A stretch of 64,000 nt of DNA from the NCBI GenBank assembly GCA_963693365.1, contig CAVNZM010000013.1, forward strand, positions 4,120,722-4,184,721. The letters run 5' to 3'. This document shows, in pieces, positions 42,825-52,144 of this stretch. Made by a program: the position numbers and the translations under genes. This DNA is from Amoebidium appalachense. Lineage: Eukaryota; Protista; Ichthyosporea. Numbering within the stretch: position 1 is the first letter of the stretch; each line of letters starts with the position of its first letter. The notes below the pieces were generated by a model, which was given only the letters and a program-made list of their open reading frames with translations, was not told the DNA's origin and ran no database searches.

Positions 42825-45800
42825 ATGGGGTGTGACGAAATTGGGGAGGGCAATGTCACACTGGCCTTTGTTCTGACAGCCGTTGCCGGGCTTTCAATCA
42901 ACATTGGCGCGTTGGTCCCTTTTCTTCCAGGAGGTAAGCGGAAACTCTTCAGCCCCTCGTTGCCAAATCATCGGAGTGAGCTGTCACGCATGATTTGTTA
43001 GTAGGCACGCTTTTTCTTGTGTACTATACGGTAAATTTACCAAACTTATTTTTCTTGCAGCATGTGCCGTCCTGTGTGGATAATGAGGGTTTCTTCACCC
43101 TTGACGTCACATGCAGGTATCTAGCATGTCACTGTGTCACTAAATCGTATGTTTCGCAGTGAGGCGTGGGCGCATGTCCCCACTTGCGGCCGGGTTGGCG
43201 TTTGCGGCCGGTGTGTTGGTCTTCATCGGCCTGACCGAGGTTTTTAAGGATGTACGTACCAACCCTTCCCCCATCACTCAAATTTGCTCAGCTCTTGTCA
43301 AGCTCTCCTTCCAGTTTGTACGTTCGTTTTCACCATGCCACAACTACGTTTTATACAAGAATAGCACGGCCCTGTACGTTAGATGGCGGTGCGAGGACTG
43401 GGGGCACATTTTCGCTTTTATTAATGCATGTAGTCACGTCAGGAGTTACGAATACCGACCTTTCATTCGGTTGGCTTTGGCCGGAAAAAAACCTGCCACC
43501 ATGCACATCAGGAAAACGTTTTGCTTGAACCACTGGCTGTAAACCATAGCTCACATGGTTCCGGCCTGCAGGCGGTCGAGTTCTTTTCCTGTGACCTCGA
43601 GAATGAGCTGCACGCCTATTATGCCACCGTGGGCTGTATGGTGGGTGGTATTTTGATGACGGCGGGACTGGAGGTGATGGTTCACGCCGTGAAGGTACTG
43701 TGCGCACTTTATCACACTTCAACTGTGTGCACATGCACATCCCTTTTTTTTTTTTTTTTTTTTTTTTTTTTTTTTTTCAAGTTGATTTTTACCTGATAAA
43801 AATGTCTATGGCCTGTATAGTTCGGGTTTCTAATGGCCCGCTCCTGCCCAACACTTAGCCTTTGCATTTTCTCATTGTCGTCAAAAATGTTATTGGTTTT
43901 GCGTTACCCCTGCTTTCGTCATCCTTTAGTGATCTTTAGAGCGCAGCTCACATCATCCACAGCAATATACCCCTCCCCCCCCCCCCCCCCCCCCCCCCCC
44001 CCCCCCTCCCCCCCTCCCCACCTTGTCTCCGCCATATTTCCAACCCTCTAATGCACCCCCCCCCCCCTCCCCCCTCCCCACCTTGTCTCCGCCATATTTC
44101 CAACCCTCTAATGCACCCCCCCCCCCCCCCCCCCCCCCTCTCCACCCTCCTCAATATCATTTATACTTCAGTCGTTCTTTTCATTTTTCTCCCCTCCTCG
44201 CTAACAATTTTTATGACACTGATCGAAAAATATTTGCAGGACCGAAGCCCAAATGCACGGAGAAGAACAGCTGCAGCGTATGCCCCTCCCCCCCCCCCCC
44301 CCCCCCCCCCCCCCCACCCACCCACCCCAGGCGGAAAAAAAAGAAAAAAAGAAATCACCACCACTTACGCAGGCACACACACACACACACACACGTGCGC
44401 ACGTGCACACACACGCGTACACACACACACACACACACTCACAAGGACACTCGCATGCGCACGACTGTGCCCTTTTGGTGGATACTTACCTTGATGCATG
44501 CACACGGCAGACACACACACACACACACAAACGTGCGCCTGCACGCACTCACACATAAAGCCATTCCGACTTTCATTCTTAAAAGTCTAAGGCCAAAGAC
44601 GACAGGGTTCAGTGTTGCAGTGGTGAAGCCAACAATTGTCTATCGTCCATACAATGCAACCCTGATTGCATTTCTGAGTTTCGATATATATGCTTATATT
44701 TCTATTATGATCATTTCACGTTTACCATGTTCATGTTTTTATATTCTATAAAGATTAATTTGCGATCATGTTATATACGCTTATGTTTCTATCATATTTA
44801 GTTCACATTTATGTCATTTATGTTTGCATGATTGTGCTGGAGTGCTAAGTTACCACGATGTTATTTGTGCATGCATGGTCGTTGTTGGCCTGATATCGTT
44901 CCTTGATATATAGTGCCATTCTAATCAAAACTCACATCTTCGATATTTATTTTTGCAGGCCGAGTGCGGCAGAGGTAGAGGCTGGCACGAGCAGTGTAAT
45001 GCAGGTAGGTTGGTATTTATGTTGCAGGCCACTGTGGAAAAGTGTGTGTGTGTGTGTGTGTGTGTGTGTGTTATGGTGTGTGTGTGTGTGTATGTGTTTT
45101 GCTTTAGGGTTCTTTCTCTGTTTCTGTTTACTTTCCTTTCGATGTGCTCTTTCTTTCTCTTTTTTCCCCATTTTCCTTCTTATTGTAGGCTGTCGTTCCT
45201 TACGTTCTCATTCGAGTAACCCTCTCCCCCTTTCCCCCATCTGTCGCCACATGATACTGACGGAATCGTTCTAGGGCAAAGCCGGTCTTGATTCACCAGT
45301 TGATGAGTTTGGGATGACCGAGTCCGACAAGAGCAACCTCAAGGAAATGTCCCTGCTGACAAGTGGGTGCACACACACACACACACACACACACACACAC
45401 ACGCACACACGCACACACACCCACACATACACACACACACACACACACACACACACACACACACACACACACACACACACACAGAGAGAGAGAGAGAGAG
45501 AGAGAGAGAGAGAGAGAGAGAGAGAGAGAGAGAAGCACACACACAGAAGCACGGGCACTGATACCCCCCCCCCCCCCCGGCGCTCCCCCTCCGCCCCCCC
45601 CCCCCACACACACACACATGGAAGTCTAAGCATCTGTAACCATGAGAAAGTAGTTTTTGTTTGTACTTCCCCTCTGCTTCGTTCTCCCATACCCCCTACC
45701 ACCTAAGCGGCACACACACACACGTACACTTAAGCTTGCTTGGCACACCAACACATCTTTGTCCTCCTTTCTCTTCCCACCCTTCACCACCTGTATTCAT

Positions 45801-51800: not shown

Positions 51801-52144
51801 TTGAGGAGGCATTCACCGAGAGCAACCTCATGCACAACATCAACGGATACGTTTACGGGAATTTGCGATTCGAAATGTGCAAAGGTCAACGTGTGCGGTG
51901 GTACGTCATGGCGATGGGCAACGAGGTGGATCTACACACTGCGCACTGGCACGGACAGACACTGACCATGGACGGGCGGAGGGTGGATACGGTCGAGCTG
52001 CTTCCAGCAACGTTTAGAACACTCGACATGGTTCCGCGCAAGGAGGGTGCGTGGTTGTTCCATTGCCACGTCAACGATCACATTGCTGCGGGAATGGCCG
52101 TGCTGGCGCACGTCGGGCCGGAGGGAACGTGTCAAAGAGTTTAG
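42825..52144 (+). CDS. ZIP (ZupT-like) transporter fused to a C-terminal two-domain ceruloplasmin/hephaestin-type multicopper oxidase, 12 exons, 703 aa
   Basis: Exons 42825-42933, 43160-43251, 43572-43694, 44240-44277, 44959-45004, 45275-45362, 45933-46092, 46613-46743, 47331-47568, 49237-49441, 50720-51220, 51764-52144 total 2112 nt, in frame with no correction. ZIP motifs: HNFPEG, HNIPEG, HELLP. MCO motifs: [66 protein letters not shown]. Confidence 0.92.
47640..49200 (+). repeat. Degenerate minisatellite (about 30-45-bp unit, core tatgttgcgtactgcttgcactttt) filling intron 9 of the ZIP-MCO gene
   Basis: Dozens of variants of (cat)tatgttgcgtactgcttgcac(tttt) over about 1.5 kb. Confidence 0.9.
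49573..50268. mobile_element. Non-autonomous DNA transposon (MITE-like, about 700 bp) with long imperfect terminal inverted repeats, in intron 10 of the ZIP-MCO gene
   Basis: Left end TAGCCCCAAATTTCGGCCCCGCCAGCGGC...ACGTCATCAAT...TGGTGGGGCCTCAC matches the reverse complement of the right end, TAGCCTAAAAATTTCGACCCCGATCAGCGGC...ACGTCATTCAAT...TGGTGGGGCCTCAC. Poly-C on both flanks. Internal direct repeat ttacattggctagatctagatct. Confidence 0.75.

Follow-up and report, generated by a model that had tools for sequence, protein, structure and literature searches.

The stretch analysed here, hereafter the window, comprises 64,000 nucleotides of the ichthyosporean Amoebidium appalachense (GenBank assembly GCA_963693365.1, contig CAVNZM010000013.1, positions 4,120,722 to 4,184,721 of the forward strand). 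It carries a single gene in which a ZIP-family metal carrier is joined to a two-domain multicopper oxidase of the ceruloplasmin type, and which stands head-to-head with an unfused ZIP paralog. Amoebidium lives on the cuticle of freshwater arthropods and is described as growing axenically (PMC11244446). The features of the locus are listed below, with transmembrane helices abbreviated as TM and positions counted within the window; residues of oxidase domain 2 are numbered as in the transcriptome protein P0001, one higher than in the gene model past residue 584.

42825..52144, plus strand: ZIP-oxidase fusion gene, 12 exons, 703 amino acids, from the gene model, the transcript protein and contigs
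42825-42933, 43160-43251, 43572-43694, 44240-44277, 44959-45004, 45275-45362, plus strand: exons 1 to 6
45933-46092, 46613-46743, 47331-47568, 49237-49441, 50720-51220, 51764-52144, plus strand: exons 7 to 12
42825..47458, plus strand: ZIP domain, residues 1-305, eight TM helices, ZupT-like, exons 1 to 9, from Pfam, NCBIfam, the model and the BbZIP match
43216..43218, plus strand: L56, putative equivalent of BbZIP M99 by motif alignment; Met in 68 of 69 homologs
45950..46054, plus strand: core of the M1 transport site, intact, with HNFPEG of TM4 at 45950-45967 and HNIPEG of TM5 at 46037-46054
46656..46658, plus strand: L234, putative equivalent of BbZIP E240 (an M2 ligand) by motif alignment; Glu in 69 of 69 homologs
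47331..47568, plus strand: junction exon 9, encoding TM7-TM8, some 16 linker residues (47459-47506) and the opening strand of the oxidase
47507..51004, plus strand: cupredoxin domain 1, residues 322-505, with cluster ligands H424/H426 (50759-50767) and H483/H485 (50936-50944) and Ser at the type-1 Cys position
49442..50719, plus strand: intron 10, phase 0, between K410 and V411, matching human F8 introns 9 and 15 in aligned position and phase
51005..52120, plus strand: cupredoxin domain 2, with type-1 ligands H636/C679/H684/M689 and cluster ligands H639/H641/H678/H680
within 51005..52120, plus strand: Fe(II)-site equivalents E597/H602/D683/E632 and the Cys pair C617/C701
51110..51817, plus strand: stretch of domain 2 with an insertion of about 37 residues, five N-glycosylation sequons and low predicted confidence (predicted local distance difference test, pLDDT); 56 residues here, 15-23 in 43 homologs
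37289..41188, minus strand: unfused ZIP paralog, 8 exons, 348 amino acids, head-to-head with the fusion gene

The ZIP-oxidase fusion is real and transcribed, and we regard its architecture as secure. The 11 introns all have GT-AG borders, and splicing them out yields a 2112-nt frame over 12 exons encoding 703 amino acids, which reproduces the in-frame splicing given by the first-pass annotation. That annotation had also read exon 9 as one frame, and this holds: the exon runs without a stop or an intron from TM7-8 of the ZIP through an 18-residue linker segment into the 18-residue start of the oxidase. P0001 (EukProt EP00123_Amoebidium_parasiticum_P018481), a 704-residue open reading frame (ORF) from a transcriptome assembly, is identical to the gene model at 700 of 704 alignment columns and carries the Zip family together with both Cu-oxidase families. 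In addition, a single spliced contig of 2254 nt from one sequencing run (X2) covers 42745-52186 exon by exon, and a 699-nt contig from another (X1) links exons 8, 9 and 10; the splice joints of the contigs agree with the gene model, and both contigs and transcriptome ORF read from the ZIP into the oxidase. The two runs represent one sample, their RNA nature being presumed rather than on record, and the EukProt protein possibly stems from related material; we count it and the contigs as one line of evidence. A gene-merging artefact, already rejected by the first-pass annotation, and an assembly artefact are both ruled out by the agreement of the spliced frame, P0001 and the contigs. As to the introns themselves, intron 9 (47569-49236) is mostly a degenerate tandem array with a unit of about 30 nt, and intron 10 holds, at about 49590-50260, an apparent element with inverted ends, possibly a miniature inverted-repeat transposable element (MITE).

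The ZIP half matches Pfam Zip (PF02535) with E 5e-34 and 118 bits, against a cut-off of 35, and scores 204.8 bits against the NCBIfam ZupT model (NF003243), under the cut-off of 252 for that equivalog. Its predicted structure has eight helices in residues 1-305, mostly at pLDDT 85-97, and fits BbZIP (7z6m) with Z 25.9 and a root-mean-square deviation of 2.4 over 236 aligned residues, i.e., the eight-helix elevator fold. The M1 ligands H172, E176, H201 and E205 are all kept, as is the release Glu of TM7 (E272). The full binuclear centre is absent, with L56 and L234 at the equivalents of M99 and E240, a residue mapping that comes from motifs. M1 is described as the essential site of ZIPs and M2 as auxiliary (PMC11549095, PMC9873690).

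The paralog, expressed as judged by its own spliced contigs, shares 189 of 315 aligned residues (60%) with the fused ZIP. The two start codons lie 1636 nt apart, and the stop codon of the paralog falls at the position where the fusion linker begins. M56L, S60G and E234L are common to both proteins, and the M2 site of the paralog, whose TM5 reads HSIPEG, is reduced further; therefore, these substitutions predate the fusion or are independent of it, and are not adaptations to it. In the ZIP tree, the two are sisters (SH-like approximate likelihood ratio test, SH-aLRT, 100) within a loose group (83) that includes a Sphaeroforma ZIP, far from the ZIPs of two archaeal loci (L016 and L024) that adjoin oxidase genes. 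The ZIP half is native to the host. The joined gene probably originated within the Amoebidium lineage: a duplicated ZIP would have extended into the 5'-most coding exon of a gene for a secreted two-domain oxidase and taken the place of the signal peptide. Joint transfer of an archaeal ZIP-oxidase pair is ruled out for the ZIP half by the sister paralog.

The oxidase half is one two-domain unit, compared with three such units in the animal proteins; in the contig it is followed by the stop codon and the 3' untranslated region, so the three tandem units of ceruloplasmin and hephaestin are not present. All 12 copper ligands are: eight cluster His, four in each domain, and the His-Cys-His-Met type-1 site, which occurs in domain 2 only. 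This is the arrangement of type B two-domain multicopper oxidases. All eight cluster His occur in 24 of 25 prokaryotic homologs vs. none of 18 aligned animal repeats. Zip and Cu-oxidase are the only families matched in the fusion protein, which thus has no FTR1-family Fe(III) permease. The best fold match of the oxidase is ceruloplasmin (E 2e-41), and E597, H602, D683 and E632 align to E935, H940, D1025 and E272, reported as the Fe(II) site of ceruloplasmin (PMC11817551). The earlier description as a ceruloplasmin/hephaestin-like multicopper ferroxidase needs two corrections: the enzyme has two domains rather than the full length, and the word ferroxidase derives from sequence only.

The seven sequons previously counted in the oxidase half were recovered (N455, N532, N546, N550, N566, N574 and N580), with an eighth at N10, outside it. 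Among 20,000 shuffles, at least seven sequons in the oxidase half occurred in 0.5% and at least five in the insert in 1.1%; 25 prokaryotic homologs have one to four each. From the ZIP topology, with both termini outside the cytosol as in ZIP13, and from the sequons, we infer that the oxidase half is extracytosolic, in a lumen or at the cell exterior. Because the cluster ligands are split between the two domains, a monomer would be inactive and the chains would have to assemble to work, probably in threes, with each cluster built at a subunit interface by analogy with small laccases; the homologous two-domain Fusarium protein has likewise been predicted to be trimeric (PMC6994591). The proposal of a single-chain oxidase-permease is therefore borne out as regards the one chain and, from the BbZIP fold and the sequons, the position of the oxidase outside the cytosol, whereas the working unit is likely oligomeric.

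No second example of the fusion emerged. When the junction exon alone was used as the query among longer proteins, one of 81 candidates carried it, P0001 itself, and in the search for Zip plus Cu-oxidase architectures advised by the first-pass annotation P0001 was the only one to combine both families among the 378 proteins fetched from the matches listed; these searches drew on best-ranked lists, and one in 378 is no proof of absence. No other ZIP-oxidase fusion was found in the 120 listed of 157 ZIP-region matches (387-1232 amino acids), in the top 150 of 7082 representatives, or in 81 plasmid records, where none covered 80% of the query. A metagenome scan gave three loci that match the oxidase part only. 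Atlas matches, all scoring below 0.9, are leads only, among them a 627-residue oxidase cluster from Vulcanimicrobiota (score 0.87) for which the Zip family is not displayed. Two eukaryote-like proteins (P0244 and P0270) have two tandem ZIP domains. In line with the first-pass annotation, our literature search turned up no single-chain ZIP-oxidase among the papers listed.

The accompanying claim that none of the known ferroxidase-transporter pairs uses a ZIP leaves archaeal oxidases out of account. A two-domain oxidase, MCO1, beside a ZIP permease has been reported in ammonia-oxidising archaea (PMC7785015, PMC5817080, PMC7819960). In Nitrososphaera viennensis, MCO1 and the adjacent ZIP gene are co-induced when copper is limiting; a scheme was proposed in which Cu(I) is oxidised and then imported through the ZIP, and its authors call it untested (PMC7785015). 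Among 80 prokaryotic loci, a ZIP gene stands directly upstream of an oxidase of the same family in 2 of 10 archaeal loci and in 0 of 70 others, the latter with Pfam run on 97 of 153 neighbour genes. A class-wide archaeal search found this order in 3 of 23 genomes, one of them already met (search tally 24/251; L093 of genome G366 was left out of the 23), and a phylum-wide search proved too broad (2/151). Loci with the ZIP just upstream are thus L016, L024, L087 and L092, the last two added by the class-wide search; the L016 oxidase is 45% identical to the Amoebidium oxidase half. The archaeal loci also show that the ZIP gene upstream of the oxidase at L087:2690-3495 is split over two frames; that oxidase homologs adjoin a CopC-CopD fusion (L011:1654-4614) or a CbtA-family gene (downstream in L015, L041, L042 and L066); and that two-domain oxidases of about 510 residues in L090, L091, L092 and L094 have an extra C-terminal domain of about 120 residues.

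The origin of the oxidase half is of separate interest. Its mean identity is 53% to prokaryotic enzymes vs. 45% to animal repeats, and the best prokaryotic matches are 48-50% identical to it. In a tree of 44 rows and 355 columns, the Amoebidium sequence together with 18 animal repeats splits from 25 prokaryotic enzymes (ultrafast bootstrap, UFBoot, 100/SH-aLRT 95), and the animal repeats alone form a group (100/98). Trees of the single domains branch in the same order, with each domain excluded from the animal repeats (SH-aLRT 94 and 96). The best tree thereby puts the sequence in an intermediate position, with the prokaryotic two-domain enzymes on one side and the full set of animal ceruloplasmin/hephaestin repeats on the other. 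The prokaryotic rows were picked for similarity to the Amoebidium sequence, and none is its sister. An initial tree held 38 of the 80 prokaryotic loci with six animal and two algal proteins; the later trees and alignment dropped six algal repeats and 13 prokaryotic rows, with fungal two-domain homologs left out. The tree is unrooted and long-branch attraction is possible, which weighs against the animal placement. The approximately unbiased (AU) test keeps a grouping with archaea (p 0.065), outside whose homologs the best tree places the sequence, and diagnostic columns are divided, with two animal-like, three prokaryote-like and two neither.

Two further characters are of the animal kind. The C617 position is Cys in 11 of 18 animal repeats; of 130 prokaryotic sequences, 117 could be matched there (13 could not), and all of these lack the Cys. 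A second Cys after the type-1 Met, C701, is found as in many A1/A2 repeats; the pair may form an animal-type disulfide. Intron 10 is followed by a codon that pairs in the alignment with residue 482 of the factor VIII precursor and with residue 125 of its light chain, which chain lengths convert to precursor residue 1792. In human F8, intron 9 comes after c.1443 and intron 15 after c.5373, i.e., codons 481 and 1791 (PMC6058261). Intron 10 lies in a proto-splice AG/G context, like 5 of the 11 introns of the fusion gene, so parallel intron gain is possible. We know of no intron at this position in human ceruloplasmin.

A two-domain precursor of the six-domain ferroxidases is part of a published scheme (PMC3600357). 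Conceivably, the two-domain unit whose triplication produced ceruloplasmin, hephaestin and factors V/VIII has a surviving holozoan descendant in this oxidase, and the ZIP fusion is a single-chain oligomeric iron oxidase-carrier and a further, independent case of ZIP-oxidase coupling; we consider this full scenario doubtful. The converse, a remnant of a six-domain gene made up of domain 1 and domain 6, is disfavoured by the placement of each domain outside the animal repeats, even though the AU test keeps a grouping with A3 repeats (p 0.28). Five pattern matches in viral contigs contained no relative that would point to a viral origin.

The remainder of the window contains, just downstream of the fusion gene, a broken tyrosine-recombinase (DIRS-like) element on the minus strand (53154-54972; weak Phage_integrase match, E 3e-4), followed by the pol of a Copia-type long terminal repeat (LTR) retrotransposon (57138-60997, minus strand; integrase, RVT_2 and SH3). 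A fragment of a PARP catalytic domain (9524-10297) and an ecdysteroid-kinase-like/APH domain (16333-17853) lie on the minus strand at the other end.

An outward-facing oxidase on a divalent-metal carrier allows two coherent couplings, in which the cargo is either the substrate of the oxidase, i.e., Fe(II) going out, or its product, i.e., Cu(II) coming in. We tentatively rank first the former, in which the fusion would serve as an iron exit module, because the oxidase has a ceruloplasmin-type site and is a likely relative of hephaestin, and because there is a precedent in Drosophila ZIP13, which is reported to move iron out of the cytosol and to have both termini outside it (PMC4130162). ZIPs carry divalent metals, import being the usual direction (PMC11549095), and hence Fe(II) could be both a cargo of the carrier and a substrate of the oxidase. 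The eight-helix ZIP would pass cytosolic Fe(II) to the luminal or outer side, where the two-domain oxidase tethered in the same chain would convert it to Fe(III), pulling a reversible carrier outward as hephaestin does for ferroportin. In a homotrimer, neighbouring chains would build the O2-reducing cluster together, one contributing domain 1 and the other domain 2, and a possible clash of this symmetry with ZIP dimerisation might be met by a larger assembly or a monomeric ZIP. The loss of the M2 Glu (E234L) favours exit, since in BbZIP simulations an empty M2 hindered cytoplasmic release (1 of 5 runs vs. 4 of 5; PMC11549095). Iron as the metal and the outward flow are the least certain parts of this interpretation.

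Several observations weigh against iron exit. Almost every ZIP is an importer, and ZIP13 is from a different subfamily. The residues of the Fe site are invariant in 25 of 25 aligned prokaryotic two-domain homologs and, being family-wide, do not indicate which of Fe(II), Cu(I) and Mn(II) is the substrate. The three ZIP substitutions, E234L included, are shared with the unfused paralog, and the presence of the fusion in a single lineage, within the searches above, would fit a recent, loosely coupled fusion. Moreover, the archaeal oxidase-ZIP pair was read as an uptake system from its induction by copper limitation (PMC7785015).

This last point leads to a Fet3-Ftr1-like uptake scheme, in which the product, Cu(II) or Fe(III), would pass from the oxidase to the ZIP for import. 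Such a mechanism, a close rival that we rate only slightly below iron exit, accords with the usual ZIP direction (PMC11549095), with the joint rise of MCO1 and its ZIP in N. viennensis (PMC7785015), and with the recurrence of the oxidase directly downstream of a ZIP gene in archaea (2/10 loci; 3/23 genomes class-wide), and Cu(II), being divalent, would suit a ZIP. However, the archaeal proposal is untested according to its authors (PMC7785015), concerns a ZIP of a distant subfamily, and has no counterpart in the 70 non-archaeal loci at the Pfam coverage given above. For Fe(III) the loss of an acidic ligand (E234L) would be unfavourable to binding, and to our knowledge Fe(III) is not a ZIP cargo.

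Rated a little lower, and likewise a close rival, is tethering without channelling, in which the ZIP, itself separately importing zinc or another divalent ion, would anchor, target and co-express an oxidase at the cell surface or in a lumen that clears away Fe(II), Mn(II) or Cu(I). The lineage-restricted fusion, a junction that resembles simple read-through given that the paralog ends at the same point, the lack of fusion-specific ZIP changes at the sites checked, the symmetry mismatch of a trimeric oxidase on a carrier that is dimeric in BbZIP (PMC9873690), and the lack of a conserved transporter neighbour for most prokaryotic homologs all suit this explanation. It has to contend with the repeated pairing of ZIP and oxidase across unrelated lineages, a linker of only some 16 residues and functional cores kept in both halves. 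Finally, it is very improbable that the intact chain is not the working unit, owing to cleavage after TM8 or dominant oxidase-only or ZIP-only isoforms: the linker has an A-N-A stretch resembling a signal-peptidase site, there is an in-frame Met307, and a donor-like AAG/GTGAG sits at 47510, the exact oxidase start, but use of that donor would shift the frame, both halves are read in one frame in the contigs and in the transcriptome ORF, and no joint at 47510 is listed for the contigs, although contigs drop rare variants and minor isoforms may occur.

Whichever direction applies, the fusion can be set beside known oxidase-transporter systems. With ferroportin and hephaestin or ceruloplasmin it would share a divalent-iron carrier combined with an extracytosolic ceruloplasmin-family oxidase that has the same Fe(II)-site residues and fold; there, however, an MFS (major facilitator superfamily) carrier and a six-domain monomeric oxidase are separate chains, whereas in Amoebidium the carrier is a ZIP, the oxidase has two domains, and one chain holds both. 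Fet3-Ftr1 of yeast and FOX1-FTR1 of green algae follow the same oxidase-permease logic at the membrane, but with an FTR1-type Fe(III) permease and a three- or six-domain oxidase in separate chains. The archaeal MCO1 likewise is a two-domain oxidase paired with a ZIP, but is encoded by its own gene and accompanied by a ZIP of a distant subfamily; the Amoebidium fusion has neither that subfamily nor separate genes. Published MCO1 has an axial Leu (PMC7785015) where the archaeal homologs aligned here have Met, so that the latter may represent another lineage. The two-domain oxidases of bacteria, archaea and some ascomycetes (FOYG_17127, PMC6994591) and the type B small laccases also have type-1 Cu in domain 2 only and split cluster ligands, but are soluble, secreted and without the glycosylated insert, and the animal-type Cys occurs in none of the prokaryotic sequences with a matched site.

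Taken together, this is an expressed eukaryotic ZIP-oxidase fusion of which we found no description; it extends the oxidase-permease systems without forming a new category, since the ZIP-oxidase pairing has archaeal precedent. Because carrier and oxidase are naturally joined in one chain, in a unicellular relative of animals that can be cultured, the coupling of ZIP and oxidase, the metal and the direction of transport become directly testable, with the paralog next door as a built-in control. Its oxidase half resembles the proposed two-domain precursor of the six-domain ferroxidases while showing animal-type traits, and could therefore be used to test the origin of ceruloplasmin from a homotrimer.

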